Shown: piece by piece, positions 4,559-21,988 of the stretch
Numbering within the stretch: position 1 is the first letter of the stretch
Layout: every line of letters starts with the position of its first letter
From: a virus
DNA: 64,000 nt
IMG/VR virus record: IMGVR_UViG_3300032313_001281
Location: 12,793 to 76,792 of that record
Direction: 5' to 3' (one strand)
Notes under the pieces: generated by a model
The model's database searches: none
What the model was told of the DNA's origin: nothing
The model's input: only the letters and a program-made list of their open reading frames with translations
Program-made: the position numbers and the translations under genes

Positions 4559-5605
4559 TTAACAAATCCGTTGATCTGATATTTTATTATCAATATATTT
4601 CCTTAGTTCACTGGTGTTTTCAAAAAAATTCTTTTTATACATTGGAAATTTTATTTTAAAATAATTTTCACACAGGTATTCCACATACGACTCCTCACTG
4701 ATGTTAAGAGTAATAAGAATATCTATATTGTTTTTTACAGCATCAAATACGGTTTCACATAATTGTCTTGAATTTTTATTAGGAACTTTTGATACATAAT
4801 CATTATGTATACTTTCTGAAAAATAATCTAGATCAAAATCCATGCCAAAATAATTTCCAATATCGATCAACTCTTGTTTAAAAAGATTAATGTCGTAAAT
4901 ATTTCTCAAACTTAAAGAATACATATTAGGAAATTGCGTATTATTACATCTTGTAAAGTCAGGCATTTTAGAAGGTGGAGCCCGATGAAACCAAGACTTA
5001 AACATGTGTCTAATGACCCATCGCGGTGCATTGGTACTGTGTTTATCTAAATAAAATGGTTCAAAACCAAATACATTTACACATTCGTTGATAATATTTT
5101 CTGGTAGATTCCAAAAATCATCTACCGAATTGATATCGGGCCAACTTGGGTCTTTTATATTGTTATATGGAGTAATGTCAGAGTATCGGTTGATATTATC
5201 AATAACTTCATGTAGCTCAGCTGTTGCTAATTTATTATAGGTATTTTCGGTCAGTAATTCCAGATCAATAGAAATGTTCGGACCCCGTCTTAGAGCAAGT
5301 TGTTTCACGGTTATATCTTCTGCTGATTCAAAGTTTATTTTTATAAAAAATTCATCCTTTTTAATATGTTTAACTATTGGATCCATGTTATATTCCACTA
5401 AAGTTTGCCAAGGATGCCAACATTCAAAAAATTTATTTTTTCTATAAGTATCAGTTCCTGTTACGTTATGAAAGGTACCGCCCGGATCAATAGGATTGTT
5501 CACATATTTTCTTTTGGTAGCCAGGGTGTTTAATACAAATTCAATATAATGGCCATGGGTTCCTGAGTAAAAAATAATTTTAATTGGTAAATTTGATCTA
5601 AACAT
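4559..5605 (-). CDS. AT-rich hypothetical protein (possible sulfotransferase-like N-terminus) carrying a DxSWPD module
   Basis: 348 aa ORF; FYSGTHGHY near N-term; YNNIKDPSWPDINSVDDFWNLP. Confidence 0.7.
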   Translation of the reverse strand: MFRSNLPIKIIFYSGTHGHYIEFVLNTLATKRKYVNNPIDPGGTFHNVTGTDTYRKNKFFECWHPWQTLVEYNMDPIVKHIKKDEFFIKINFESAEDITVKQLALRRGPNISIDLELLTENTYNKLATAELHEVIDNINRYSDITPYNNIKDPSWPDINSVDDFWNLPENIINECVNVFGFEPFYLDKHSTNAPRWVIRHMFKSWFHRAPPSKMPDFTRCNNTQFPNMYSLSLRNIYDINLFKQELIDIGNYFGMDFDLDYFSESIHNDYVSKVPNKNSRQLCETVFDAVKNNIDILITLNISEESYVEYLCENYFKIKFPMYKKNFFENTSELRKYIDNKISDQRIC

Positions 5606-5685: not shown

Positions 5686-6771
5686 CTAGGCCGAAGCTTG
5701 CAGGATGTACTTACCGTAGCGGTTGTGGAACTCATCAAAGTTCTTGAGCTTGGTAGGCTGAAACGGTAAGTTGTAAGTGGTAAGTGCAATTCTGGCACCC
5801 ATAACAACCAACTCGGTCTCAAAGTTCTTCATCATGTAGGCAAAGAAATGATCGGCCATTTCGTGGAACTGCTTGTCAGCAACCTTGCGTTCAATAGCAC
5901 CTTTGAGCTCGTAGCACATACTGATCACCAAGCTGTACATGGCTGACACTTCTTTGACATCTAGATCCTTGACCTTGCCCGACAAGATATCTTCGGGTTT
6001 GGGCATGCGTCCAGCAATCTTACGGTGTGCCATGAACTTGACAGCAAGGCCTTCGCCCACAGTACCAGCAATCAAGTTCATGACAGTGTCATCATCACCA
6101 TCTTCATCTTCTAAAAGCTGGCTCACAAATGTCCACGATCTTGGTGTTGCAAAGGCACGACTTGCACTTTTAGGATCAAAGTCATAGAGATCTTGTTTGG
6201 CAAAACTCAAATAACCTACCACGTCCTTGTGGATGTTGTTGTTGACTGCCCACTCTTGGTAGCTGGCAAAGTCCACACGCATCTCTTGGTGAATGAAACG
6301 ATTGGCCAAGGGCGTGGGCATGCGGTATGTGACACCTTTGTCGCTTTCTCTGTTACCGGCAGCAACCAAGACCACGTTGTCGGGCAAGAAATATTTGCCC
6401 ACTCTGCGATTCAAAATCAATTGATAAGCCGCGGCCTGTACGCTAGGAGCCGCACTATTCATCTCGTCCAAGAACAGCACCACCATCGGATATTGATCAG
6501 CAAACTCTTTGGTAGGAAGATCTACAGGTTCAGCCCAGTCCATTTTACCTGAATCTTTGTTGTAGAAAGGAATACCACGAATGTCTGTGGGCTCCATTTG
6601 ACCAAGACGAAGGTCGATCATGTAACCACCAAGTTCCTGGGCAATATCGGCTACCAGTTCACTTTTACCAATACCAGGAGGACCCCACAGGAATAGCGGG
6701 CGTTTTTTTGCGAATGCTTTGAGCAAGCTCTTGCGAGCCTGCACCGATGTTACGGTTCTTGTGTCTGACAT
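5686..6771 (-). CDS. MoxR-like AAA+ ATPase (AAA_5 type)
   Basis: Walker A GPPGIGKS, Walker B LFLDE, AAGN sensor, LANRF arginine finger. Confidence 0.9.
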   Translation of the reverse strand: MSDTRTVTSVQARKSLLKAFAKKRPLFLWGPPGIGKSELVADIAQELGGYMIDLRLGQMEPTDIRGIPFYNKDSGKMDWAEPVDLPTKEFADQYPMVVLFLDEMNSAAPSVQAAAYQLILNRRVGKYFLPDNVVLVAAGNRESDKGVTYRMPTPLANRFIHQEMRVDFASYQEWAVNNNIHKDVVGYLSFAKQDLYDFDPKSASRAFATPRSWTFVSQLLEDEDGDDDTVMNLIAGTVGEGLAVKFMAHRKIAGRMPKPEDILSGKVKDLDVKEVSAMYSLVISMCYELKGAIERKVADKQFHEMADHFFAYMMKNFETELVVMGARIALTTYNLPFQPTKLKNFDEFHNRYGKYILQASA

Positions 6772-6888: not shown

Positions 6889-8046
6889 TCAGACTGTGCT
6901 AGAGATATCACTGATTTCGCCAAGATATCTGCCAATGGAAAATTTTGGTTTAACCCCACCAACATACATGTTGTTTTCTCTCATCTCATTGACCGGAACC
7001 ACCGAGTTCATATACTGCATGCCTTGACGCCAAATCCTTAAAAAATCAGAATTCTCATCACGATGAAACCAACTATCCCATTCTCTCAGAAAACCATGAC
7101 TGGATTTTTCACAATCCCAGTGCGGTAAAAATCTTTTGGGATAAATTACAGATGCTATCCAGTCCTGAATGTTGCGACTGCTCCAATTGATTAAGAGTTT
7201 GTCTGCATGCGATTTACCATTTTGCATGCGATTTAATGCCGTCAAAACCAGATGACCTTGTTTGCACAGCAGTTCGCCAGCCGAAGGAGCCCAATAAAAA
7301 TGTTCAATAAAATTATAGTTGCTATTGTTGTTGCGCAAGGGATTCTGTCGATTCAAATTTTCATCATCAAATACCAGGTGCAGGCCATTCCCTCGGCGAA
7401 AAAATCTGGGTTTTTCCATGCCTGTGATATGTGCTACAGTCTTGCCTTGATCCACCATCTTGGTGTATCTTTGATCCAAACAATTTGGGGTCGAAAGTAC
7501 CAACATGCCAGGATCTAAATTGTTGTATTCTTCAAACCAGGCAGGGTTGTCTCTCATGATATCAACGGCTAATTGTTTGGTTTCTACTACGGTAATTTTT
7601 AGATCAGGTTGATATTGTTCTTTGAAAATTTTTGCAGCAGGAACAGCAGCAATGCCGATTTCGGCATAGGTATTTTTCGCAGATCTAACTGTGGAATCTT
7701 GGATGCTGTCAGAAAAAGGACCACGTGTAACCACTTCATCTAGTTTGATATCATTAACAGCAAAGGTCTGCAATATATTTCCACTGTCATGTCCACCACT
7801 GAGATGCAGGACAAGATAATCGTATTTGTTTCTGATTTCTTGTGCTCGTTGCGTATATAAATCTTGTATGCTAGATTTCGGCTCAACAGACCAATCTATT
7901 AGATCAAAGTAATCGTTGTTAAAACACCATGAAAAATCTAAACCATGCGCCTTACAGTGCAAAATACATTCTAGTTTGTTGTAAAACTTTTTTTTGTCGG
8001 ATGATAGATAGTAACCGTATCTGTCAAAGTCAAATATGCTATACAT
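6889..8046 (-). CDS. PP-loop (adenine nucleotide alpha-hydrolase-like) protein, paralogue 1
   Basis: LHLSGGHDS motif; colinear similarity with 20329-21513. Confidence 0.75.
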   Translation of the reverse strand: MYSIFDFDRYGYYLSSDKKKFYNKLECILHCKAHGLDFSWCFNNDYFDLIDWSVEPKSSIQDLYTQRAQEIRNKYDYLVLHLSGGHDSGNILQTFAVNDIKLDEVVTRGPFSDSIQDSTVRSAKNTYAEIGIAAVPAAKIFKEQYQPDLKITVVETKQLAVDIMRDNPAWFEEYNNLDPGMLVLSTPNCLDQRYTKMVDQGKTVAHITGMEKPRFFRRGNGLHLVFDDENLNRQNPLRNNNSNYNFIEHFYWAPSAGELLCKQGHLVLTALNRMQNGKSHADKLLINWSSRNIQDWIASVIYPKRFLPHWDCEKSSHGFLREWDSWFHRDENSDFLRIWRQGMQYMNSVVPVNEMRENNMYVGGVKPKFSIGRYLGEISDISSTV

Positions 8047-8984
8047 CAGTTTGGTTCCAAAATCTTCATTTGATCATTTATCATACGCCATTGATGAGCT
8101 TGTTTTTTTACCTGTGTTTCAAAAGTGCCATCTAGCACAGACATCACCGCCATTCCTTGTTCGTGTGCCTGTTTTTGAAAATCTTTTGAAAAAACATGTC
8201 GTGAATATTTTTTCCTAAGTTCTTGGATTTGTGCTTGGTCTAACTTACTGTTTACTGCCAGTGCTGACCAGTTGTAAAAAACGAATCCATCCAGCCAATC
8301 ATGCATCAACGGATACTGATTGAATCGAGAATCGTTTGGTGCTGATCCCAATGCCATTATGTCAATGTCTTTGCCTATGTTTGCAGCTACAATGCCCAGA
8401 TTATCTAGCATGATATCAATGTGTCCACCCAACAGTGCAGCTTTCACATCGCCGCTGCCTTTGAAAGGAACTACAATCAACTCGTGTGCTGTGTATTTTT
8501 GCATCCAACGTGCAAAAAATTCATGTGCGGTCCCGCCCACACCAATGGTTATACTCAACCTGTTGTTGGTAGGCCCAAATAATTCTTTCATTGTTTTGAC
8601 CTTGCTGGTTTTTGTGTTGATTGCCATGACCTCGGGACTGGCCAGAAAGGGAGAAATTATAGTCAAGTCTCGCAAAGGGTCAATTTTTTTGGTGCGCATG
8701 GGTTCAAACAGTATTATACCTGGCCCCACGCCGATCAAGGAGGTTGCATCCGGTGGCAATGTCAGATAAGCATGGTAGCCTACTAGTCCGCCTGCACCTG
8801 CACGATTTTGGATTATGGTTCGTGTGTTATCGTATTTGTCTGAAAAGTTGGCTAGTTGTCTGGACCACAGGTCAACATTTCCACCCGTAGAAAAGGGAAC
8901 GATGATTGTAGTATTGGCTATGGCCATGTTGCCAAACAAGCACAAGATAGCCGTGACCAATACCAAAGTGAGTTTTTTAATCAT
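8046..8984 (-). CDS. Bug/TctC family periplasmic solute-binding protein
   Basis: Signal peptide, IIVPFSTGGNVD, NRAGAGG, VPFKGSG...ALLGGHID. Confidence 0.9.
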   Translation of the reverse strand: MIKKLTLVLVTAILCLFGNMAIANTTIIVPFSTGGNVDLWSRQLANFSDKYDNTRTIIQNRAGAGGLVGYHAYLTLPPDATSLIGVGPGIILFEPMRTKKIDPLRDLTIISPFLASPEVMAINTKTSKVKTMKELFGPTNNRLSITIGVGGTAHEFFARWMQKYTAHELIVVPFKGSGDVKAALLGGHIDIMLDNLGIVAANIGKDIDIMALGSAPNDSRFNQYPLMHDWLDGFVFYNWSALAVNSKLDQAQIQELRKKYSRHVFSKDFQKQAHEQGMAVMSVLDGTFETQVKKQAHQWRMINDQMKILEPN

Positions 8985-9016
8985 TTTTTTTCTTCAAATA
9001 AAAATTTTGTTGCGTG

Positions 9017-9301
9017 TTATCGGCCACGTCCAGCACTTCGTGTGGGTGGTTTTTTGCCTGTGGGCGGCGCAGTCTTGACCTTCTTGACTTTAATATCGGT
9101 AGCGGCCACATCACTGCCGTCCACGTGGGTCTTGCCCTGTTTCTTTTCCAGGGCACGGGCCAGGGTTTCAGACATCTTGCTCATTTCTCTATCCTTTCGT
9201 TTTTGATCTAGCCGATCTAACAAGGCCAGCAATTCTGTTTTAGTAAGTGTTTTGCCCCAGGTGGGCTTGGTCTGTGTAGTTTTGGATTTTTTAGTTGCCA
9301 T
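9017..9301 (-). CDS. basic hypothetical protein
   Basis: 94 aa Lys/Arg-rich ORF just downstream of tRNA-Thr. Confidence 0.6.
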   Translation of the reverse strand: MATKKSKTTQTKPTWGKTLTKTELLALLDRLDQKRKDREMSKMSETLARALEKKQGKTHVDGSDVAATDIKVKKVKTAPPTGKKPPTRSAGRGR

Positions 9302-9306
9302 ATTTT

Positions 9307-9381
<75 letters not shown>

Positions 9382-9386
9382 CGATA

Positions 9387-9605
9387 CTATTCTGCCACAG
9401 TTTCTGCTACCGCCGGCGCCCGATAGCTGGAACGACCTTTTAGTTCTGCGATTCTGCGTGTAATTTTTGCCACATGACGTTTGCGAGACGAAGTCAACAG
9501 CTTTTCCAATTGTGCCACATTGAGTGGTCCCAAGCGTGGGTTACCATTCTTGGTACGCATAGGATCTGCCTTGCGTGATTTTTGTCCTGTTTTGTTGCTG
9601 GCCAT
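9387..9605 (-). CDS. basic hypothetical protein
   Basis: 72 aa, AAGGAG SD upstream. Confidence 0.7.
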   Translation of the reverse strand: MASNKTGQKSRKADPMRTKNGNPRLGPLNVAQLEKLLTSSRKRHVAKITRRIAELKGRSSYRAPAVAETVAE

Positions 9606-10301: not shown

Positions 10302-11345
10302 CTAACTGGGATTTTTACGTTTGAACTGGATCTTTTTATTGGTGGCTTTGAATCTTGTCACGGTCATGTTTTCCGGGCAAAGACTGCATTGTGGCACAGG
10401 TACGGCACTGCGCAGATCATCCACAAATGATTCCAACTGATCGGTTGGCCAATCAACTTCGGCCGGCACATATGATTCTATTAGATGTCGTTGAGCAACT
10501 GACATGGTTACCGGAAACTGCTTGATGAAATCCGGTAGTATGCCCACGGGCCCGCATTTATAAAGTTTGCCCTTGATTATGTGATGGCATTTTTTAAAAT
10601 AGCATACCTCCATGGCTCGCACGGGATCACTGTTGTGCAGAAACAGTCCGTGATTCACGGGATCATATGTCACAGTGGAAGTATTGAAACTGTCTGCCAT
10701 GGCCAATTCAACCCTGATGCCATTGCGATCAACTATGCGATGGGTGAAGACTTCGCGAGACCAGATTTTGGGACTGAAATGATGTATGTCGTGGCATTCC
10801 TTCTGTATGTGTATGGGCAAATCAAAAAAGTCATCCAGTGTGGCACAATCCGGCCAGCTGTCGTCGCGGATCCTGTGATAGCAAGAATTCCAAAGATTGA
10901 GCATACGTTGATCAACTAAGACATGTGCTGGATCGACCACGTCATCTAAAAAATCCATGATGTTGCGAGATATTTCAGATTTTGAATCTAGATTATGGCA
11001 ATTGACTTCTAACATTATGCGACCGTTGTGTTCCAGCAACACATCGTACAACTGAGGCCAGCGAGCAAACTGTGTGCCATTGGTTATTATCTTGATCTTG
11101 CTGTGTGGCCATAGACTGGCGATGCCCTTGACCCATAACAGGAAATCTGGGTTGGTCATGGGTTCGCCGCCCAGTATTCCAACAGTGTCAAGATCTAGCA
11201 ACTGGGCCCATTTCTGATTTTGGCTGACATGATCCTGCCAGCGAGTGTGCCCGGAAAAACTGTAATTGTTGCAGCGATTACAATTTGGACAGTTGAGATT
11301 GCACACATTGGTTATATAAAATTCAGTATAGTCTAGCTTGAGCAT
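10302..11345 (-). CDS. radical SAM protein with DxSWPD insertion
   Basis: CNLNCPNC, LGGEP, ITNG; likely start MLKLD at 11345. Confidence 0.85.
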   Translation of the reverse strand: MLKLDYTEFYITNVCNLNCPNCNRCNNYSFSGHTRWQDHVSQNQKWAQLLDLDTVGILGGEPMTNPDFLLWVKGIASLWPHSKIKIITNGTQFARWPQLYDVLLEHNGRIMLEVNCHNLDSKSEISRNIMDFLDDVVDPAHVLVDQRMLNLWNSCYHRIRDDSWPDCATLDDFFDLPIHIQKECHDIHHFSPKIWSREVFTHRIVDRNGIRVELAMADSFNTSTVTYDPVNHGLFLHNSDPVRAMEVCYFKKCHHIIKGKLYKCGPVGILPDFIKQFPVTMSVAQRHLIESYVPAEVDWPTDQLESFVDDLRSAVPVPQCSLCPENMTVTRFKATNKKIQFKRKNPS

Positions 11346-11364
11346 TGCTGTATATATACACAAA

Positions 11365-11441
11365 TGGTCTCGGTGGCAACAATCGAACCTTCAACAGCTC
11401 CCTTCTGAGGAGAATACGTCTACCTGTTGCGCCACCGGGGT
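11365..11441 (-). pseudogene. chimeric/pseudo tRNA-Leu(CAG)
   Basis: 11385-11441 matches 10199-10255 at 53/57 nt, but the 3' T-stem/acceptor half (GUUGCCACCGAGACCA) is different and pairs poorly. Confidence 0.75.
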
Positions 11442-11500
11442 ATAGTGCAGGGATTCCACCTGCGCCCACTTCACTTTAGAGTCTGCGTGTCCAAGACTTG

Positions 11501-12115
11501 TTACATGGTTACTTGTGTAGTGCCATTTCCGTTTTTAAATCCTACAGTACCACCTTCGGCTTCAATCCTCTTGATAACGTCTTCAAACAGGATAGGCGCA
11601 AAGTCAGGAGTTTGTTCCACGCACACACAGTGATATCTTGTATCGATCTCGTTGCTGTATAGCGTTTCTCCGGTTCTAGCATCTACACCACGGGCACGCA
11701 TCACACGATTTGCATGCGTGTGTCCGTGTATGTTGACACCAAACCGCCCCAGACTGGCTTCGTGTACAGGAATATGGCTGAGAATCATGCCGTTCATCAC
11801 ATGGTAAGCACGCAGTTCACGGAAGTGTTCACGATAGTCAGTGTCCCGGAAGATGTCGTGGTTACCGCGGATCAGGACCTTGTCACCGTTGAGACGGGCT
11901 AGGGTGGCCAAGGCTCTACGATTGATCACCACATCACCCAAGTGATACACCTTGTCGTTGGGACGCACACGATCATTCCAAGCCGCAATCATGGCTTCGT
12001 CCATTTCCTCTGCCGAATCCCAGGGACGAAGCGGTGTGCAACCATCGCTACGTGTGAAGCGACATACGCCGGCATGGCCAAAGTGTGTGTCGCTGACTAA
12101 AAATACTGCTGGCAT
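11501..12115 (-). CDS. calcineurin-like metallophosphoesterase
   Basis: SDTHFGH, HLGD, GNHD, HGHTH motifs; start MPAVF. Confidence 0.9.
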   Translation of the reverse strand: MPAVFLVSDTHFGHAGVCRFTRSDGCTPLRPWDSAEEMDEAMIAAWNDRVRPNDKVYHLGDVVINRRALATLARLNGDKVLIRGNHDIFRDTDYREHFRELRAYHVMNGMILSHIPVHEASLGRFGVNIHGHTHANRVMRARGVDARTGETLYSNEIDTRYHCVCVEQTPDFAPILFEDVIKRIEAEGGTVGFKNGNGTTQVTM

Positions 12116-12299: not shown

Positions 12300-12373
12300 T
12301 GGTTGCGGGTGATGGAATCGAACCACCAACTGGAGCTTATGAGACTCCCGAGATACCGTTTCTCTAACCCGCG
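12300..12373 (-). tRNA. tRNA-Met(CAU), initiator-like acceptor stem
   Basis: CGCGGG...CCCGCAACCA with C1:A72 mismatch; loop CUCAUAA. Confidence 0.88.
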
Positions 12374-12788: not shown

Positions 12789-13817
12789 ATGCTTGATCTA
12801 GCCGATGTACGTCAAGTTCAAATTGAACTAACCACCCGTTGCAATGCCCGTTGTCCAATGTGTATGAGAAACTATCGTGGATACGATTACAACAGCGGGT
12901 ATCCTGAGACTGAACTTTCTTTGGAAGATATCAAAAAAATATTACCTGTTGAATTTTTAAAACAGTTGACCAAATGCATCAGCTTCAATGGTAATTTGGG
13001 AGATTTTGGTCTGGCACGCGATGCTCAAGAAATTGTGCATTATTTAACAGACTTGGATGTTCCGGTCCGTATCAACACCAATGGCAGCATGCGCACACCC
13101 GATTGGTGGGCCAATTTGGCCAGACCCGAAGTCACAATTGGTTTTGCACTGGATGGCATTGATCAACCTACGCATGCTCTGTATCGTCAAGACACAAATT
13201 GGGATACAGTTATAAAAAATGCCAAAGCATTTATATCTGCTGGGGGTAAAGCCATTTGGAGATTCATTCCCTTTGATCACAATCGTCATCAAGAATCTGC
13301 TTGCCGGCAAATGGCCCAGGACCTGGGATTTGCCATATTTGAAAACATTGATGAAGGCCGCAATCGTGGTGCTGTGTATACAAGATCGGGAGAATTCAGT
13401 CACTGGCTAGGGGAACCGTGGACTGAACAAGAAAGAATCAATCCTACTCCAGTGAAGCAGTTGCTTGACCATCATGTTACTTGGTTTGATACTAAAACCG
13501 TGCTGTCAGAAAAAGACACTCAACCACTGAATTTAATCTGTCAACACAAACGTCTTGAAGAGATATACATAGCTGCCGACGGCACAGTGTGGCCTTGTTG
13601 TTTTTTAGGGTTTTATCCGGCTACCATGCACCATCCTGGCAACAGTCAGTTGGCACCTCTGGTGGCAGAAAACAATGCCTTGGAATATGATCTAGCTCAC
13701 TGTATGGCCTGGTTTAGCAGAGTAGAAGAAACCTGGAGCAAAAACAGCATAGCTGAAGGGCGTCTGTATGGGTGTGTGAACAGTTGCGCAAACAATAAAT
13801 CAAATTACCCTGGGTGA
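12789..13817 (+). CDS. radical SAM/SPASM-type protein (only plus-strand gene)
   Basis: CNARCPMC, NTNG, FALDG, C-terminal IAADGTVWPCC. Confidence 0.88.
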   Translation: MLDLADVRQVQIELTTRCNARCPMCMRNYRGYDYNSGYPETELSLEDIKKILPVEFLKQLTKCISFNGNLGDFGLARDAQEIVHYLTDLDVPVRINTNGSMRTPDWWANLARPEVTIGFALDGIDQPTHALYRQDTNWDTVIKNAKAFISAGGKAIWRFIPFDHNRHQESACRQMAQDLGFAIFENIDEGRNRGAVYTRSGEFSHWLGEPWTEQERINPTPVKQLLDHHVTWFDTKTVLSEKDTQPLNLICQHKRLEEIYIAADGTVWPCCFLGFYPATMHHPGNSQLAPLVAENNALEYDLAHCMAWFSRVEETWSKNSIAEGRLYGCVNSCANNKSNYPG

Positions 13818-13834
13818 TTGATACCACAATAACA

Positions 13835-14650
13835 TTATTGTATGCTGTGGTCCTGAGTTATGCGTCTATGCCAATTTTCAGCTATGAGCTCTTGACTGTA
13901 GGGACTGCCATGATAGCCTGGATCTTGGCCTTCAAAGCTGTTGTTGCCAGTGAGTGGTAACACACTTTCGCGTTCATTGAGCATGATATATTGATCGGGC
14001 AACATGCTAGGAAAGGCTTGACGCCATTGCTTGGTATTGTCGGGATCCCATGGCCATAGCAGACTGGGTTGTACAAAAAATGCCAGGCCATCAAAATACA
14101 TCTGCAAGATGCCTTCCACAATGATCCATTCGTCTTGTTGTTTTTTCCAGTTGCTGTCATACAGCTGGTCAATGTAGTATTTCATTGCTGTTTGAGTTTC
14201 TTTGGGAATTAGATCCAAGCGATATGGATGCGTTCCGTTGTCGGCCAAAGTAAAAATAGTCTCGCATATCATGTTTGCCGGTTCGTTGCCATAGTTCACA
14301 TTGCGAATGCCGGCCAGGCGATCATACCCGTTGCCTAGCGCACGATTTTGCAAGTGGTTCTGTAGATGATTTTGATCGCGCTGTGTTTGTTTGGGCCATT
14401 CAAAGTTGGCACCACGGGCAGGAATTTCCATCCGGTCCCAGAATGTGGGAGTCACAATGGCAAAGTCCGGACGCTGTCTGCGGATTTCTTCCATTTGGAT
14501 CCTGATGCCACCATTGGAGCATCCTTGCCGGGCTAGATTGGTCAGACGCCAGCCCAGGCGGTGGGCCAGACGTTCGCTCCAGCTGGTGCCAGGTAATTTT
14601 TGACTGGGTGCGCTGTAACTGCAACCTGCTACCATTAGGTGTTTTTGCAT
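13835..14650 (-). CDS. SGNH/GDSL-like hydrolase or acyltransferase
   Basis: VAGCSYS...NLARQGCSN...DPGYHG. Confidence 0.65.
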   Translation of the reverse strand: MQKHLMVAGCSYSAPSQKLPGTSWSERLAHRLGWRLTNLARQGCSNGGIRIQMEEIRRQRPDFAIVTPTFWDRMEIPARGANFEWPKQTQRDQNHLQNHLQNRALGNGYDRLAGIRNVNYGNEPANMICETIFTLADNGTHPYRLDLIPKETQTAMKYYIDQLYDSNWKKQQDEWIIVEGILQMYFDGLAFFVQPSLLWPWDPDNTKQWRQAFPSMLPDQYIMLNERESVLPLTGNNSFEGQDPGYHGSPYSQELIAENWHRRITQDHSIQ

Positions 14651-15153
14651 GTGATATACTCGTTGGTATGTGTGTTTGAATGAAATCCAGCAATTACATC
14701 TCTATGCAAGGGCAGTTCTTCTAAGCTGTAACAACCAGGTTCTATAGAGTATTTAACAGTGCCAGATCCGGGTCCTGCAAAAGTCACACGGTGTGGATGC
14801 CCTGCTGTGGCCTGATTCACAAACACATGATGCAGATGTCCATAGTCGCCTTGCTCATTGTGTGTGAGTATCAAATCGTAATTTGAAATGATATCGCCAA
14901 TTTCTTTGCGAGCCTGTGCTTCATCAAAGCTGATGCGTTTATTTTCGATGTCGTGCCAGTCATCTCGATAGCCCAAAAATACTGTTGGTATGTTTCTGCG
15001 ATTCCAAAACTGTCGGAATTCTTGTGCCCGTGGTTGCCAATCACAGTAGGTAAGATAACATATGGTCCATTCATGTTCGGGATGATTGTGTATGTAACTG
15101 TAGGCAAATATCACACAGTCATCCGGGTGCGCCACCATGGCCATGGCTTTCAT
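14635..15153 (-). CDS. PIG-L/LmbE family N-deacetylase
   Basis: AHPDD and THN..GDYGHLHH motifs. Confidence 0.85.
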   Translation of the reverse strand: MKAMAMVAHPDDCVIFAYSYIHNHPEHEWTICYLTYCDWQPRAQEFRQFWNRRNIPTVFLGYRDDWHDIENKRISFDEAQARKEIGDIISNYDLILTHNEQGDYGHLHHVFVNQATAGHPHRVTFAGPGSGTVKYSIEPGCYSLEELPLHRDVIAGFHSNTHTNEYITCKNT

Positions 15154-15782
15154 GCCAGATAAGTTCCGTTGGTTGTTGATCTAAAAAGATTGTGTAAATC
15201 CTGCCAGTTAGTGATCCAATCTTTGAAGTTGTGGGGACTGGGTCTATTGATTTTGCCCACCTTGTTTCCGTCATAGTAGATGCCCAGGGTGTTGGCTATA
15301 TGCACCACGCCGTGATGCATTATATCTTCATAGTATATGGTGACAACTTTTTTGAAATTATCAAAGTTGCCATTGGGCCATGAACTATAAGACCGCAACA
15401 CTGACAGAAATTTTTGTTCCGACACAACAGTGGGCAATGCTGGTTTATCTGTGTAGTCCTTGCCATTCCATTCTTGTGTGATTTCCGCCACCAATAAACT
15501 AATGGTCTGCGCAAATTTGTCTTTTCGATCACTCAAAATCAAAATTGCATGTTCTGGGTCAATTCCCAAGTTTGCGACAGTGAGATTCAAATTGTGTGTG
15601 TGTATGACAATATTTTGATCTGTATCATAACTTTCGTAAGGCTGGGGATTTTTAGGATGCCAATAACATTGGGCATTGCCCAGCCCTCCTGCTGTGTTGC
15701 CCACGCCAGACATTGCTTCAAGAATGATATGGCTGCCGGTTCTACCGGGAGTATTAATAATGTAAGTTTCTCTGGTATTCAT
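15150..15782 (-). CDS. sulfotransferase-like protein (Stf0-like)
   Basis: TPGRTGS PAPS-binding-like loop, R..K.AQ.IS, IYYED. Confidence 0.6.
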   Translation of the reverse strand: MNTRETYIINTPGRTGSHIILEAMSGVGNTAGGLGNAQCYWHPKNPQPYESYDTDQNIVIHTHNLNLTVANLGIDPEHAILILSDRKDKFAQTISLLVAEITQEWNGKDYTDKPALPTVVSEQKFLSVLRSYSSWPNGNFDNFKKVVTIYYEDIMHHGVVHIANTLGIYYDGNKVGKINRPSPHNFKDWITNWQDLHNLFRSTTNGTYLA

Positions 15783-16618
15783 ACCAGGTCTTGAGCTGTG
15801 GCAAGCCCATGAGTCAACAACAGATTCTTGTAATGGTTGCGTTGGTCTTGACTCATCTGTGCCCAGGCATATCTATGCACACTCACAGTCAGATTATCTG
15901 GGTCGTGCATCAACTTCAATTTTTCATCAATTTGGTGCGTTTGATTGCGACACAAGTTACATACGGTATAAGGATTAGTCAAACTATAGAACTTGTCCAT
16001 CGACCCGTGCAACAGCAGATTGAATCCAACATACAACAAATATTCAGTTACCATGCCTTGTTTTTGAAACCAATCGCTGAATTTTTCACCGGTTCGAGAA
16101 TGAATTTCATCTAACATTTTTCTTATAGTTTGACCATGGAAGAAAAATGGAACACCCGATGAGCCACCATTTTTGGTGAGTTTCACATCAAACAAGTGTC
16201 CCACAATTTTGGCGCTGGTGTCAAATACTTCTGGTATTGGCATGGTGCCACCGATAGGTTTGCCCTCAGGTAATACCAAATCCAATGTAACGGGTTTTAC
16301 TATTATGGTTTTGGCATCTAGGATCATGATGAATTCATTTTCACTGTGGGCAGCTCCAAGAACCTTTAAGGCTTGTTGGCTTACCCAACCATCATCCACA
16401 TACCAATCTGCTAGGGCACTTCTATGCAACACACGCACACAATTTTGTAAAGGTCCCCACCATGTTTTGTCAATCAAATCAACAACTTGGGGATCATCGT
16501 TGACCACAACAAATATATTCTTTATACCTATGTGCTGGCAATTTTTAGAAATGCTTTCAGCCTGAACCTTTAAAATAGGCAGTTCGGGTTTAAAAACCAC
16601 AGTCAATGTGTCAATCAT
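15779..16618 (-). CDS. glycosyltransferase-like hypothetical protein
   Basis: GWVSQQALK...ILDAK (DxD-like), TEY; start MIDTL. Confidence 0.55.
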   Translation of the reverse strand: MIDTLTVVFKPELPILKVQAESISKNCQHIGIKNIFVVVNDDPQVVDLIDKTWWGPLQNCVRVLHRSALADWYVDDGWVSQQALKVLGAAHSENEFIMILDAKTIIVKPVTLDLVLPEGKPIGGTMPIPEVFDTSAKIVGHLFDVKLTKNGGSSGVPFFFHGQTIRKMLDEIHSRTGEKFSDWFQKQGMVTEYLLYVGFNLLLHGSMDKFYSLTNPYTVCNLCRNQTHQIDEKLKLMHDPDNLTVSVHRYAWAQMSQDQRNHYKNLLLTHGLATAQDLV

Positions 16619-16632
16619 CTTTTTACTTATAC

Positions 16633-16660
16633 AAAAAAAGCCCCCTAAGGAGCTTTTTTG
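16633..16660. terminator. intrinsic terminator after the porin gene
   Basis: aaaaaaagc-cccctaagga-gctttttt hairpin flanked by A/T tracts. Confidence 0.7.
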
Positions 16661-16675
16661 TATCACTTTTAAAAA

Positions 16676-17416
16676 TCAATTAAAAGTTTTTGTCAACCCA
16701 ACTACCACTGCGTTCTTGTAGAGCTTTTGGCCCGATACAGTGTTGGCAGTTTCAAAGGCGCCGGTTGTGCCAGTATTGGTGAAATACTTGACACTGACGT
16801 CATACTCTCGTGGTAAGCTGTAAACAAACCCAGCATTGATGTCATTGTAATCATATGCTGAACTGTTGGCCACATTGGTACGACCATAGTGAGCAACCAC
16901 AGCAAGATTCTTGATCACAGGAACTGGTAACTTGCCATCAACTTGTGTATAGTTGGTGCCACGAGCATTGGCTGTACCGAAGTAACCGTTGCCCAAGGTT
17001 TGGCTATACTTGGCAGAAATAATATCTTTGTAACCCAATCCAACATAGCCTTCATAGGTGTCAAAGCCGGAGCCAGTTGAGGCTGATGTGGCGGCACGTG
17101 GATAGAAATAGTTGTAGCTACCAACGTCAACGCTGATACCTTTAAAAATTTCTTTCTTGTAACCGGCATAGAGGTCGCTTTCTAAGCCTGCACCTGAAGT
17201 GTAGACTTGGCTAGAAACCGAGCTGTTCCAGTTACCAACGTAGAAGCCACTCTTGGTTGCATAGTCAATGCCGCCCTGAACTGCAGGAGCATTTTGGGTT
17301 TGGCTAACACCGCGGAAACGGTAGTCGCTGGTCAAACCTAAATTGCCAGTGAGTTGAGCTTGAGCCGAGGCAACAAAGCCAGCGGACAAGGCTAATGCGA
17401 TTAATAATTTTTTCAT
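16676..17416 (-). CDS. TorF-family putative outer-membrane porin
   Basis: Signal peptide, SDYRFRGVSQT...PAVQGG.DY...GFY.GNW.S, C-terminal F. Confidence 0.88.
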   Translation of the reverse strand: MKKLLIALALSAGFVASAQAQLTGNLGLTSDYRFRGVSQTQNAPAVQGGIDYATKSGFYVGNWNSSVSSQVYTSGAGLESDLYAGYKKEIFKGISVDVGSYNYFYPRAATSASTGSGFDTYEGYVGLGYKDIISAKYSQTLGNGYFGTANARGTNYTQVDGKLPVPVIKNLAVVAHYGRTNVANSSAYDYNDINAGFVYSLPREYDVSVKYFTNTGTTGAFETANTVSGQKLYKNAVVVGLTKTFN

Positions 17417-17492: not shown

Positions 17493-17520
17493 CAAAAAAG
17501 CCTGATTTCTCAGGCTTTTT
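17493..17520. terminator. intrinsic terminator after the tmRNA
   Basis: aaaaaagcctga-tttc-tcaggcttttt. Confidence 0.8.
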
Positions 17521-17852
17521 AGACTAGTTTGGGTGACAAGGCATAGTTGCCCCGGAGATCATGCCGCTAAGGCAAAGACCTCGTTATTAGATGCGTTTGC
17601 ATTTAATAGAGTTGCTTGATTTACAGTCATCGCCTACTGTGTAGATCCTGTTCATACTTGTTGCCACGTCGAAACTGTGTATGGCCCATCAAAAGCATAT
17701 TGTAACGCGAACAAGAGTGAGTCGTTCCAAGTCGCCAGATCAACAAACACATTTCTGCGTTGTTCTCGCACCTGCAATATGCTTTTGGTGGACCATTCGG
17801 GCACTGCCCCCGAGTCCGCAACACCTTTCTGTCAAGGCATTAAACTACAATT
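17521..17852 (-). ncRNA. ssrA: two-piece (circularly permuted) tmRNA
   Basis: Acceptor piece ending ...GACUCGGGGGCAGUGCCCGAAUGGUCCACCA (3' end 17786) precedes the coding piece starting GGGCCAU...UUCGAC (17687); G3:U70; tag ANASNNEVFALAA* at 17600-17559. Confidence 0.9.
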
Positions 17853-17859
17853 CTTTAAT

Positions 17860-17888
17860 ATTATACGACACACCTATTTATGTGTCAA
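17860..17888 (-). promoter_or_regulatory. sigma70 consensus promoter of the tmRNA
   Basis: TTGACA-17-TATAAT with nested CATAAATA. Confidence 0.85.
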
Positions 17889-18308: not shown

Positions 18309-19265
18309 TCAAGCCTTGCGGATACGTTGAATTAGATTGTCAGCAAATGTGCTTTCAAATTCAGCATACACTGACTGCATCTTGTCCTTCATTGATGCTG
18401 TTTCTTCTGCGGTAGGCTCATACACCGTCTTGCCTTCACTGATCAAACGATCACGTGCTTGGATACCATCAACAATTGTGGTTTGACGTTCGTTACGGCC
18501 GGCTTGGATAGCGGCTGTCTTGATCACTGCTTTGACTTCTGCACTGAGACTGTCCCAGAAACGATCACCAATTATCATTGTGGTCAAGAACAAGCTGTGC
18601 TTGCTGTCAACAACACTTTGGATTACATCGTTCTGGTTCAACGGATAGATGCGGCTATACACTGTGTCATTACCGTTGCAATCGCCACGGGCCACGTGTT
18701 CACGTGCTTCTTCAGTTTCGCAAATGAATGGCTCAACGCCACTCATGGTACGGATCACAGCACGGCCCACTGGGTTACGATTTGAACGTAGTTTTTCACC
18801 AGTCAAGTCGGCCAATGTGCTCACTGGCTTGTTCACGCCCAAGCAACGGAAGCCGCCCGAGTATGTGTAAGCAAGTCCGCGAACATTGCTGTTGTCTGTG
18901 AGTTTGGCTAACAAAGTTTCGCCAACTTCACCTTCAAGCACACGGCTAGCATGGTCATGATCGTTGAAAATGTAAGGCATTTCAAACGCCAAGAAATCGT
19001 GTTCATAATGTTCAGCCAACCAAGTGGTGTACATCTGACTCATTTCAATTTTGCCCTGTTCCATCAGGTCTAACAAATCGTGCTTAGTGACTACAATGCC
19101 ATCGTTATACCTGGCACTGTATTCACCCAACGTCATAACTTCAATTTCAATTTTCTCTGCAGATTGCTGTGCATTGATTTCTTTTTCAAAATCTTGTGCT
19201 GCACGTACAAACAAGCTGAGTGGCTCGTGGGCAATAACCCAACGAATTTTAGTAGTTTTGCTCAT
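18309..19265 (-). CDS. dctP: TRAP transporter substrate-binding protein (DctP family)
   Basis: F..E+...S..KIEIEV, G.IEM, FEMPYIF.D.DH, GFR, PV.TLADL.G.KLR; no obvious signal peptide. Confidence 0.82.
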   Translation of the reverse strand: MSKTTKIRWVIAHEPLSLFVRAAQDFEKEINAQQSAEKIEIEVMTLGEYSARYNDGIVVTKHDLLDLMEQGKIEMSQMYTTWLAEHYEHDFLAFEMPYIFNDHDHASRVLEGEVGETLLAKLTDNSNVRGLAYTYSGGFRCLGVNKPVSTLADLTGEKLRSNRNPVGRAVIRTMSGVEPFICETEEAREHVARGDCNGNDTVYSRIYPLNQNDVIQSVVDSKHSLFLTTMIIGDRFWDSLSAEVKAVIKTAAIQAGRNERQTTIVDGIQARDRLISEGKTVYEPTAEETASMKDKMQSVYAEFESTFADNLIQRIRKA

Positions 19266-19279
19266 TTAAAATGAACTCC

Positions 19280-19402
19280 TTAATTATTAGTTGCTTACGA
19301 CAGTGTCGCATACGGTCGGCGTCCCAGTGTATCACACTGGTAAAAGGGTATCACTACCCTAAGCGTCTTTATTTCCGACGTCAGAAGAACCCGGCGTTGC
19401 AA
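19280..19402 (-). ncRNA. candidate structured leader RNA upstream of dctP
   Basis: UUGC/GCAA and GUCGG/CCGAC outer stems enclosing GGGUA-GUGA-UACCC and CCAGUGU-GAU-ACACUGG hairpins. Confidence 0.5.
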
Positions 19403-19404
19403 TA

Positions 19405-20319
19405 TTATTTATCCAATGATACACCTTGTGTCAAACGTTTCCACTGTGCAACCTGTGAATTAAACCAAGCATCAATTTGATTGTCAGGCATCTGGTTATT
19501 TGGAACACAGTTATCAGCATCATTGGCATTGCGTACACTTTGAGCACGACTGGCTTCCACCAGGATCTTGCGTATTTCACGGAACTTTTCATCTGACAAT
19601 TTACGTGATGCAAAAATCTGCTGTGGAGTACTCATGTCACCGAGGTCTTTATTAAATCCCTGCTTTGACAACAATTCTGTGCCTTTGATACTGGCTTGTC
19701 CGGTTTGCCCAAGCCAATAAACTTTTTTAGCAGATCCAGGAACAGTGTACTGTTCGCTGTCACCGTGGAATCCCACTGAAAAATCTACTGAACCATTGAG
19801 AACCCCTAACAAAGCTTCGCTGGTGCTTTTAAACGGCACAATGGTTAAATTTGGATAATTTTTGGCAATCTGAATACTGACCAAATGTGTGGTAGTGCCC
19901 ATGCCGCTCATGCCAATGGATAGTTTAGCATCACGTGGCACGTCTTGCCAGCTTTTGTATCGGGCGCTGCTGATCACAAAAGGACTCACACACATAGGCA
20001 GAATACTGCGAAAATCTGCCATGCTGTGACTGTCAGCTGGCAACAAATTTGGACGAATAAATCCAGCAGAACTGTTAATCCACAAGGTATTTGAAGGGTT
20101 GTTTGTGGTGTAATTTGCTGCCACGGTACCACCAGCTCCGGGTTTGGTATCAAACAAAAATGTGTATTGCGTCTGTAGTTTGTTGGCTTCTTCGGTTAAT
20201 GCACGATAGAAATTTGCTGCCTTGTCGGCAGCTGTCCAACTATAAGCCAGGGTAATAGTTTCTTTTGCTGACACTGTCAACGACAGGGTGGCTAGCAATA
20301 ATGTTAATAATTTCTTCAT
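19405..20319 (-). CDS. Bug/TctC family periplasmic solute-binding protein
   Basis: Signal peptide, KPGAGG, G.GTTTHL, VPFKS. Confidence 0.85.
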   Translation of the reverse strand: MKKLLTLLLATLSLTVSAKETITLAYSWTAADKAANFYRALTEEANKLQTQYTFLFDTKPGAGGTVAANYTTNNPSNTLWINSSAGFIRPNLLPADSHSMADFRSILPMCVSPFVISSARYKSWQDVPRDAKLSIGMSGMGTTTHLVSIQIAKNYPNLTIVPFKSTSEALLGVLNGSVDFSVGFHGDSEQYTVPGSAKKVYWLGQTGQASIKGTELLSKQGFNKDLGDMSTPQQIFASRKLSDEKFREIRKILVEASRAQSVRNANDADNCVPNNQMPDNQIDAWFNSQVAQWKRLTQGVSLDK

Positions 20320-20328
20320 AATTTTCCT

Positions 20329-21513
20329 TTAAAATTTAAAATGTACATTGGTTCCAGGATCCTCAAAAGATGCTTCGCCAAGATAATAAAACGGACTAAT
20401 GAACCCTACAAATCCAACAGGACGGCCCATTTCATTGTTAAAATATTTTGGATCAATTGAATCGACTAGATACTTTAGGCCACTTTGCCAGGCGCGATAT
20501 GCATGAGTTTCTTGAAAGTTGGTGTAAAACCAATGATCCATTTCGTTGTAAAAACTATTGGTGGGTTTTGATGTTTGAAATGTGGTTGGGTCAAATTCGG
20601 GATAGATCAAGGGTTTGATAATGTGTTCATAAGTGGTGCGTTGTGTAAAACTATAGTTGGGCCAACGAACCAGGTGCTGAAGATATTTGTTGCTGTCTAG
20701 ATTGAACCAATTTTTTATCATGTGTGCCTGTTTGGCCAGCAGTTCCGGCAAGTCTGGACTCCAGAAAAAATATTCATTGGTAACATTGGTATATCCGGCT
20801 GTATCAGGATTGGCCGCATTGGCCTGAACATCCATAAAATACAAATACCACTTTTTATCTTTAATGCAAATCTTGGGTTTATCTATGCCCCACAGCACAC
20901 AAACTCGCTGGCCTTGATCCAATTTTCTTTTATGGTCATCCACTGCGTCCACTGTGTGTTTAAAAGGATGCCCGGGTTGAAAGTAATCTCTGGTTTTAAA
21001 AACCCAACTTTCGTCATGTCGACTTCGAAGCATGTCTTCACTGTAATCGTGTATGGTAATTCGTGTTTGTGGACTGTGCGTAGCAATCCAGTCCAACACA
21101 GGCATGGCCGCATAACGAGCTTCACTTAAGGTGTTTTCTGGTTTGGTATTGAAGGGGTCGTCAGTGACATTTTTCTCTCCAGTTTTGGGATAGCGAAACA
21201 CCACTTCATCTAGATGTATGCCGTTGTTGATAAAACTGTAGGCCGCAGTCACTGAATCACCACCGCCTGAAAATTCTAGTCGCACATAGTCATATTTTTC
21301 TCTGATCTGTTGAGCACGTATTCGATAAAGTTCGAGCAGATTAATTTCGGGTTCCTCTAACCAATTCACACTGTCAAACGTTGATCGATTGAAATTCCAT
21401 TCTGGAAATTGGTTGCGTTGGGTACCTTGAATCAACGCCTGAACTTTGTTGTGGAACTTGTCTGGCCCTAATTGATAAAATCCCAGCTTGTCGTTTTTTT
21501 CAATGTTTAACAT
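20329..21513 (-). CDS. PP-loop protein, paralogue 2
   Basis: LEFSGGGDS; RAQQIREKYDY, GIDKP, EYFFWSP shared with 6889-8046. Confidence 0.75.
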   Translation of the reverse strand: MLNIEKNDKLGFYQLGPDKFHNKVQALIQGTQRNQFPEWNFNRSTFDSVNWLEEPEINLLELYRIRAQQIREKYDYVRLEFSGGGDSVTAAYSFINNGIHLDEVVFRYPKTGEKNVTDDPFNTKPENTLSEARYAAMPVLDWIATHSPQTRITIHDYSEDMLRSRHDESWVFKTRDYFQPGHPFKHTVDAVDDHKRKLDQGQRVCVLWGIDKPKICIKDKKWYLYFMDVQANAANPDTAGYTNVTNEYFFWSPDLPELLAKQAHMIKNWFNLDSNKYLQHLVRWPNYSFTQRTTYEHIIKPLIYPEFDPTTFQTSKPTNSFYNEMDHWFYTNFQETHAYRAWQSGLKYLVDSIDPKYFNNEMGRPVGFVGFISPFYYLGEASFEDPGTNVHFKF

Positions 21514-21524
21514 ATATTAGTAGT

Positions 21525-21599
21525 TGGTGGGCCTTCTAAGAATTGAACTTAGACTCCAACGATTATGAGTCGTTTGCTTTACCATTAAGCTAAAGGCCC
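21525..21599 (-). tRNA. tRNA-CAU, probably Ile2 (lysidine) or elongator Met
   Basis: GGGCCUU acceptor stem fully paired, loop CUCAUAA, ACCA. Confidence 0.85.
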
Positions 21600-21616
21600 T
21601 GATTTACAGTATAGCA

Positions 21617-21988
21617 TCAGGGCCGGTAATTGTCAAGGAATTGTTTGAGATTTCCATACAGGTTTACCATTACAGCTTCTCGGCTGCCAAAGAACACAAT
21701 TTTTTTGGGTATGCCTTTGGTGGCTGAGATATAGTAAGGCATCTGCATTTTTCTATCTAGATCTAAAATGGTCTGTTGATTGAACAGCATGGGATCTGCT
21801 ATTGCATATTCATAGTGCTCGAGATCAAGATCCTTGACAAAGGTCCGATGTCCCGGACCTGTCAGGCGCATGCCTCCATTTTTTCTAAGATTGAACCACC
21901 AGGTCTTCATGGCTGTGTCAACACTGACAGCTAGATGTTCGGGTAACTGCGATACCAGTTCGGTGGTTAGACGTCGTTTGTCTCGCAC
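21617..21988 (-). CDS. hypothetical protein
   Basis: 123 aa ORF, WW.N....GGMRLT. Confidence 0.65.
   Translation of the reverse strand: MRDKRRLTTELVSQLPEHLAVSVDTAMKTWWFNLRKNGGMRLTGPGHRTFVKDLDLEHYEYAIADPMLFNQQTILDLDRKMQMPYYISATKGIPKKIVFFGSREAVMVNLYGNLKQFLDNYRP

Follow-up and report, generated by a model that had tools for sequence, protein, structure and literature searches.

The stretch analysed here, referred to as the window, comprises 64,000 nucleotides of a viral contig (IMG/VR record IMGVR_UViG_3300032313_001281, positions 12,793 to 76,792) and carries at 18309-21599, all on the minus strand, a module of five features. In the order of transcription, and following a putative promoter, these are a tRNA(CAU) gene, a gene for a PP-loop protein (P0001), a gene for a Bug/TctC-type binding protein, a 139-nt spacer with a structured RNA, and a gene for a DctP-family binding protein (Table 1). 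All five had been listed in an initial annotation made from the bare sequence, and its description of them was found to be correct in every point. The source contig measures 76.8 kb and was given a CheckV completeness of 22%; since related contigs span 317-357 kb, it was assigned to a jumbo phage, which encodes a T4-type DNA polymerase, many tRNAs and a two-piece transfer-messenger RNA (tmRNA). Near-identical DNA was present in 20 DNA sequencing runs of 11 studies, mostly lake or freshwater metagenomes, with no RNA runs among them, and the relatives are uncultured jumbo-phage contigs from lakes. Synteny was read from IMG/VR loci, and the presence or absence of signal peptides was judged throughout by inspection of N-termini.

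Table 1. Features of the module, of its control elements and of the first PP-loop/Bug pair (positions in the window)
Feature	Position	Strand	Basis and remarks
Putative sigma-70-type promoter, TTGACA-17-TATACT	21608-21636	−	11/12 matches, TG before the −10 (extended −10); by consensus match only
tRNA(CAU), tRNA-Ile2-like	21525-21599	−	ARAGORN; Rfam 73.4 bits; would need lysidine to read AUA
PP-loop protein P0001, 394 aa	20329-21513	−	SGGGDS at residues 82-87; pLDDT 94 model
Bug/TctC protein P0003, 304 aa, Sec-type signal peptide	19405-20319	−	PF03401
ATAAATA box, T4-late-promoter-like	19406-19412	−	few nt upstream of the RNA motif; putative promoter
Conserved structured leader RNA	19291-19402	−	covariance model R1; spacer 19266-19404
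Leader RNA core: hairpins P1, P2, P3 and CGG:CCG closing stem	19309-19402	−	
Leader RNA 3' part: fourth hairpin, then conserved AGC	19297-19309; ~19291-19296	−	
Shine-Dalgarno AAGGAG of the DctP gene	19276-19281	−	sequence; 10 nt upstream of ATG
Leaderless DctP-family (TRAP-type) protein P0004, 318 aa	18309-19265	−	PF03480; presumed cytoplasmic
Copy 1 Bug/TctC protein P0005, signal peptide	8046-8984	−	PF03401, 62.1 bits (cut-off 27)
Copy 1 PP-loop paralogue P0002, 385 aa, SGGHDS	6889-8046	−	motif; similarity to P0001

A PP-loop gene and a Bug gene stand together twice in the window, as had been noticed initially. The pair of copy 1 (8984-6889), in which the stop codon of the Bug gene overlaps the start of the PP-loop gene, is homologous to that of the five-feature module, the two PP-loop proteins sharing 30% identity (E 3e-45) and the two Bug proteins 26% (E 5e-9). 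Directly downstream of the copy 1 PP-loop gene, a MoxR-like AAA+ ATPase (5686-6771, minus strand) and a 348-aa protein without a Pfam family (4559-5605, minus strand) are encoded. A survey of synteny recovered the module, with shuffled order, in 49 related IMG/VR loci, where an orthologue of the PP-loop gene is accompanied by Bug and/or DctP and extra PP-loop paralogues, also in tandem, or extra DctP paralogues are frequent; because it recurs in this number of loci, the arrangement is not due to chance. The pairing of Bug with a PP-loop gene recurs, in either order, even where the PP-loop proteins are only 24-37% identical to P0001. In one relative (record G002, locus L005) the order is PP-loop, TctA, Bug-like, DctP, MFS transporter, methyltransferase, with the PP-loop and DctP proteins 81% and 91% identical to those of the window and TctA matching PF01970 at 4e-29; TctA and an MFS carrier thus lie inside the module and place it among uptake genes. 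A review (PMC6359870) already counts phage tctA among the auxiliary genes. The TctA (432 aa), the diverged Bug-like protein and the MFS protein (Sugar_tr) of this relative are encoded at L005:7188-8486, 8644-9474 and 10705-11988, and two copies of the leader RNA described below are found there.

Folding of the 139-nt spacer (19266-19404) as a single sequence gave a z of −0.92, which is not significant, yet comparative covariation strongly confirmed that it holds a real structured RNA, as initially annotated. When the Bug-DctP spacers of seven phages were aligned, conserved blocks (GCA-(A/G)CGCC, GACG(U/C)CGG, GACGC(C/U)U, UUUAC, AACGCC and CCGUA) alternated with hairpins whose stems carry compensatory changes; the RNA is about 95-125 nt long, with three or four covarying hairpins and invariant unpaired bases at the junction. 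A covariance model (R1) matched 47 times in the first 52 sources and 36 times in further loci, the latter being the model-confirmed subset of a loose DNA pattern scan that itself gave many chance matches. Across 41 distinct sequences, 96.9% of cells were paired and 15 of 21 pairs showed changes on both sides; none of 500 shuffles was as good, and slid controls reached 25-54%. An independent MAFFT/RNAalifold alignment recovered P1, P2 and P3 together with the CGG:CCG stem closing P2 and P3, and a fourth hairpin with a conserved AGC follows downstream in most instances. A different closing stem (ACGUCGG with CCGnCCGU) may exist but was set aside, being about 80% paired without covariation and appearing in RNAalifold only in its CGG:CCG part. 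No match to the spacer was obtained among the 4,227 families of Rfam 15, whether the gathering threshold or a limit of E 1 was applied, and the motif was not found in 150 other sampled Pseudomonadota genomes, the sole match being a phage-like contig of a metagenome-assembled genome (MAG).

The RNA always lies on the strand of the genes, in most instances 5-77 nt upstream of the next start codon. The downstream genes encode DctP (32), Bug (17), PP-loop (5), TauD (3) and DUF2061 (3) proteins and others, including a fatty-acid-desaturase type and uncharacterised ones; in distant phages the order is RNA, then Bug, DUF2061, a membrane protein or none of these, then the PP-loop gene. Near-complete genomes (320-350 kb) have the motif once or twice and never outside this module, and the window holds one copy. 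In 62 of 66 motif instances a TAAATA box occurs at most 25 nt upstream, with the consensus ATAAATA(A) a few nt before the motif; the window has eight copies of ATAAATA, all in intergenic DNA. Because this box resembles the late promoter of T4, the RNA may stand at the 5' terminus of a transcript of its own. The element looks like a riboswitch or a similar control element, with which it shares a multi-helix junction, stem covariation, invariant unpaired bases and a position as sense 5' leader of a coherent gene set, made up of binding proteins, membrane proteins and a single enzyme family; it differs from known riboswitches by the lack of an Rfam 15 match and in having been seen only on phage-like DNA. 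Positions at which it precedes TauD dioxygenase, DUF2061 and fatty-acid-desaturase-type genes are L088:2264-3310, L135:414-1457, L090:561-1010, L102:10195-10644 and L097:6811-7857. As to DUF2061, such genes of Caulobacter are induced by iron limitation (PMC3751524), and one of Shewanella is tabulated among genes related to iron and Fur (PMC12442407).

The two binding proteins belong to families with known transport systems. The Bug protein of the module scores 34.5 bits against PF03401 (cut-off 27), a weak match by which it is a diverged member, and its N-terminus, MKKLLTLLLATLSLTVSA/KE, is a Sec-type leader; a signal peptide is present in every phage Bug homologue examined. With the Bug/TctC receptors of tripartite tricarboxylate transporters it shares PF03401, the Sec leader, a length of about 300 aa and, in one relative, an adjoining tctA; it differs in being encoded by a phage, in its repeated pairing with a PP-loop enzyme and in the weakness of the family match. 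This contig yielded no tctA and no tctB, and of three phage records searched (G000, G002 at 89% and G003 at 97% completeness) TctA occurs only in G002, whereas no DctQ/M gene (searched with PF06808) was found in any of them.

The DctP protein is a full-length PF03480 member (134.2 bits, cut-off 23.4; NF037995 at 104 bits, cut-off 50), and its best relatives in the PDB are DctP subunits (E 3e-23). Its N-terminus, MSKTTKIRWVIAH, lacks a hydrophobic leader, as had been claimed, and an in-frame TAA directly 5' of the ATG means that no longer form exists. Every phage homologue examined is likewise leaderless, across sub-clades of 33-93% identity, and starts M-x-K-x-x-(I/V)-(R/K)-W-V-x-A-H-(E/D)-P; since the leader is missing throughout these proteins and retained in Bug, a cytoplasmic binder is the natural reading. 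Nearly all of the 120 closest DctP clusters are 317-319 aa long, and identity is 61-96% across hundreds of metagenomic clusters. Arg160, in a G-x-K-L-R strand, aligns with the K-I-R arginine of 4p47 and 4xfe and is conserved in at least 90% of 22 phage homologues; the arginine of TRAP binding proteins holds the carboxylate of the ligand (PMC4646407), and by its alignment Arg160 would be equivalent to R147 of SiaP. PF03480 and this arginine are thus shared with TRAP DctP proteins (SiaP, DctP, the isethionate-binding IseP type), from which the phage protein differs by the absent signal peptide, by the dedicated structured RNA, by a gene that is split in at least eight phages and by the lack of DctQ/M in the records searched. 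In the split form two open reading frames (ORFs) overlap at TGA/ATG (AATGA) near residue 157, just before the K-(I/L)-R-T-N-R-N-P strand bearing the ligand-binding arginine (L009:7347-8299, L014:7359-8307, L022:7339-8270, L042:8235-9184, and L011, L019, L036 and L123).

The initial annotation had cast this protein as a sensor or sponge in a system of small-molecule synthesis and sensing. The cytoplasmic binder and the link between binding proteins and PP-loop enzyme were upheld, the link extending beyond adjacency because DctP, Bug and PP-loop genes share the leader RNA; the sensor or sponge and the synthesis-and-sensing system were not, TctA and MFS in one relative pointing to uptake and not to sensing.

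The SGGxDS loop is intact in P0001, and among 120 diverse family members G84 and D86 are invariant and S82, G83 and S87 at least 90% conserved. P0001 gave no match in Pfam, NCBIfam, PHROGs or PDB sequences (phmmer and, for the PDB, also profile searches), nor at E 1e-5 in 50,697 phage records (INPHARED, tblastn). Its close metagenomic relatives number at least 821, and an exhaustive profile search yielded 1,712 clusters at 50% identity. The sole match in a bacterial genome, obtained with a 7-sequence profile, was a 3-kb contig of a Methylococcaceae MAG, and the family was not found in 400 other sampled Pseudomonadota genomes. That contig holds three tandem PP-loop copies, a DctP and the RNA motif, and is therefore regarded as phage DNA. 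The family, which has no Pfam model, was thus found only on phage-like DNA.

An AlphaFold model built from the 120 diverse sequences reached a predicted local distance difference test score (pLDDT) of 94 and replaced a poor one built from 7 sequences (pLDDT 52). It shows a Rossmann-like alpha/beta fold, and a structural search ranked five AsnB-family enzymes first: AsnB (1ct9; Z 11.8, root-mean-square deviation 5.1 Å over 289 residues), human ASNS (Z 10.5), beta-lactam synthetase (9.6), TsnB9 (8.8) and carbapenam synthetase (8.3). These matches cover 266-289 residues and extend beyond the nucleotide-binding core into the C-terminal subdomain, whereas TilS (1ni5) matched with Z 8.2 over a 157-residue core only; the background of PP-loop, USP and flavodoxin-reductase folds lies at about Z 7, and further matches were NAD synthetase, GMP synthetase, LarE and QueC. 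The top Foldseek match was carbapenam synthetase (E 4e-5), and in a comparison with viral models the nearest named entries were 'asparagine synthase'. Profile comparison with hhalign covered 16 columns against E. coli AsnB, in the PP-loop only, and 53 columns around the PP-loop against E. coli TilS (54% probability); as the PP-loop region alone is aligned in both cases, sequence cannot decide between the two.

PF00733 (Asn_synthase) matched neither P0001 nor any of the 120 members at E up to 1, and because this sequence test fails the family was not filed under it. An N-terminal Ntn glutaminase domain was not found, only about 60 residues preceding the PP-loop helix; longer, fused relatives were searched for and none was found, which is weak evidence. 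There was likewise no Pfam match to ATP_bind_3, TilS or TilS_C in P0001 or the 120 members; QueC (PF06508) did not match P0001 and matched four of the 120 weakly, in the PP-loop only (best E 0.011). From these results, P0001 is read as an N-type ATP pyrophosphatase that is active, is built like AsnB and lacks the glutaminase domain. With the AsnB family (AsnB, beta-lactam and carbapenam synthetases, TsnB9, CmoY) it has in common the SGGxDS core and a helical C-terminal subdomain; it differs by the missing PF00733 match and by showing no detected sequence similarity beyond the PP-loop, by a family-specific domain of about 60 residues in place of the glutaminase, and by a distribution in which the only match in a bacterial bin is phage-like. 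Synthetases of the AsnB and beta-lactam type adenylate a carboxylate and then form an amide, and the modelled architecture suggests the same chemistry for P0001. Complex prediction for the PP-loop protein with the leaderless DctP scored 0.00 in two runs, which speaks neither for nor against binding.

In 5,426 E. coli genomes, all best matches of the tRNA(CAU) gene carry the annotation tRNA-Ile, and it has C4:G69 and C5:G68 pairs and an anticodon arm that we take, from the E. coli TilS literature, to be typical of tRNA-Ile2; on these grounds it is probably an AUA-reading tRNA that requires lysidine. It is probably no substrate of the neighbouring enzyme but merely the first gene of an early transcript and a member of the phage tRNA region. 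A second tRNA(CAU) gene (12300-12373, minus strand) matched none of the E. coli tRNA genes, even with E allowed up to 10. The tmRNA, permuted and in two pieces (17559-17849, minus strand; RF04321 at 109.8 bits), is absent from the ARAGORN output and preceded by a sigma-70 promoter matching at 12/12 positions (17888-17860); the tag as read from the alignment is ANASNNEVFALAA. The betaproteobacterial tmRNA model scored 75.9 bits over 17494-17885, and the tmRNA may be a hint that the host belongs to the Betaproteobacteria. Genes for three radical SAM proteins, of which one has a weak SPASM match below the threshold, lie among the tRNA genes and both modules (1849-3366 and 10302-11363, minus strand; 12789-13817, plus strand). 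The tmRNA is followed immediately downstream by several envelope-type genes, unusual as phage cargo (13835-17416, minus strand), with a Gcw_chp porin-like protein (16676-17416), a DUF6492 protein (15779-16666), a PIG-L deacetylase (14635-15153) and two uncharacterised members.

Two carboxylate-binding families, occasional carriers, an enzyme of carboxylate-adenylating type and a shared leader RNA together suggest a pathway of capture, binding and amidation. We therefore favour, tentatively, a module of a freshwater jumbo-phage lineage that would take up, bind and, at the expense of ATP, amidate a carboxylate under the control of a new leader RNA. We infer the links between these observed parts to be as follows. 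The exported Bug would capture a solute bearing a carboxylate, or possibly a sulfonate, in the periplasm and pass it to a TctA-type membrane carrier, which would be the host's in this phage and is encoded by the phage itself in one relative. Inside the cell the leaderless DctP would bind the solute, and the PP-loop enzyme would spend ATP on adenylating its carboxyl group and converting it to an amide, by which the solute would be trapped or a needed product made. The leader RNA would tune the genes of the module, the simplest case being a riboswitch that responds to the solute or the product. A bolder form, in which the leader is a new riboswitch class on phage-like DNA that senses the carboxylate or the amide, DctP, sometimes in two pieces, is an intracellular carrier, and the pathway of capture, binding and amidation might supply a building block of hypermodified DNA, is rather unlikely.

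Several points weigh against the uptake-and-amidation reading. The resemblance to AsnB is structural only, at 5.1 Å, and the profile alignment with E. coli AsnB is confined to the PP-loop; the ligand, substrate and activity given to the parts are predictions. No expression platform, that is, a terminator or a helix sequestering the Shine-Dalgarno sequence, was recognised for the leader RNA, in which it again differs from riboswitches. As DctQ/M is missing from the three records and TctA is present in one of them, transport would depend on parts of the host, and we know of no role in uptake for a cytoplasmic binding protein of the TRAP type. Should the ATAAATA box be a late promoter, the genes would be expressed late, an odd time to begin the import of nutrients. 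All loci stem from one phage lineage, so that the conserved neighbourhood partly reflects common descent.

It is also conceivable, at a low probability, that there is no common pathway. The region of the tRNA array would then be a dumping ground for host-like genes, each useful by itself, in which Bug and DctP boost or alter the nutrient uptake of the host, the PP-loop enzyme is unrelated to them and the RNA acts as a leader of general use, for stability or for translation. A precedent is offered by phage binding proteins that work with transporters of the host, such as cyanophage PstS, which are an established kind of auxiliary gene; the porin-like, DUF6492, PIG-L and radical SAM proteins and the tmRNA of the same region, together with the highly variable gene order and content among phages, would agree with such a view. 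However, one or two copies per genome, always in this module, are not what a general leader would show, Bug and PP-loop genes stay paired in either order among distant PP-loop proteins and overlap in copy 1, and a leaderless DctP cannot serve periplasmic uptake.

In a further alternative, which we consider distinctly unlikely, the PP-loop paralogues would be ATP-dependent amide ligases acting on a carboxyl-bearing DNA base or its precursor, and the binding proteins would import or hold the amine or acid to be attached. CmoY, a phage AsnB-like ligase, was shown to amidate a carboxyl group of DNA with glycine (PMC12783734); by analogy with its action on 5-carboxymethylcytosine, a candidate substrate would be 7-carboxy-7-deazaguanine, made by way of the phage FolE, QueD and QueE genes. 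QueD was found in 10 of 12 related phage records, including all four near-complete ones, and in none of the records did a QueC match exceed the Pfam cut-off. The presence of several diverged PP-loop paralogues in one genome would agree with amine specificities that have diversified, QueC is the commonest, very weak, Pfam match of the PP-loop family, and the neighbours in an Atlas feature search include a viral cluster of which 38% of the members carry QueC. On the other hand, the PP-loop genes sit with genes for binding and transport and with the tRNA region, about 15-25 kb away from the deazaguanine genes in the window, the QueC that was not detected could be one of the further PP-loop ORFs, some 300 aa long, in these phages, the joint occurrence was seen in one lineage and so does not count as independent evidence, and P0001 has no similarity to phage proteins of INPHARED at the threshold given above. 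ORFs with the PP-loop motif and about 300 aa were noted at G412:C1:101946-102083, G410:C1:136893-137033 and G003:C1:238420-238551; two adjoin queD, in two relatives. The Pfam TGT search found no DpdA-like gene in any of the 12 records, this one included, and is not usable as a test of the deazaguanine link.

Phage sponges for defence signals are of a known kind, and the leaderless DctP could be a cytoplasmic sponge for a host signal that bears a carboxylate, such as a second messenger of immunity, with the RNA and the PP-loop enzyme in the same counter-defence. The protein is cytoplasmic by its N-terminus, strongly conserved and abundant in jumbo phages, and its two-piece form would be unusual for a transport protein. 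We nevertheless regard this as improbable: no similarity to known sponges was noted (PADLOC and anti-defence libraries were not searched), and DctP is linked to the exported Bug and, in relatives, to TctA and MFS carriers. Least probable of all is a TilS-like PP-loop enzyme, offered initially as the alternative for the adjacent tRNA, which would place lysidine, or another adduct on base 34, on tRNA(CAU) or other phage tRNAs, for although the tRNA-Ile2-like gene lies 11 nt upstream, a tRNA(CAU) precedes the PP-loop orthologue in many loci, the PP-loop core is shared, TilS is among the fold matches and its profile alignment is better than that of AsnB, the substrate-binding and C-terminal domains of TilS were not detected, the fold match is limited to the core, each phage record has one to five family matches, and the PP-loop gene follows Bug in copy 1 and a tRNA-Arg, tRNA-Thr, Bug or DUF2061 gene or the leader RNA in other phages.

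The reading of a module for the uptake, binding and amidation of a carboxylate is thus the one we prefer. Neither the leader RNA nor the PP-loop family is described in the libraries that were searched. Three results are new and accessible to experiment: this family, which is very large, was found only on phage-like DNA and can be modelled with confidence, the lost export signal of DctP, and the leader RNA. The conserved loss of the export signal in DctP, the gene of which is sometimes split, implies a function inside the cell for a fold that is otherwise known only as periplasmic. Riboswitch-like elements that are specific to phages and tied to genes of transport or metabolism are rare, and the ligand of the leader RNA would reveal what lake phages take or make in their hosts.

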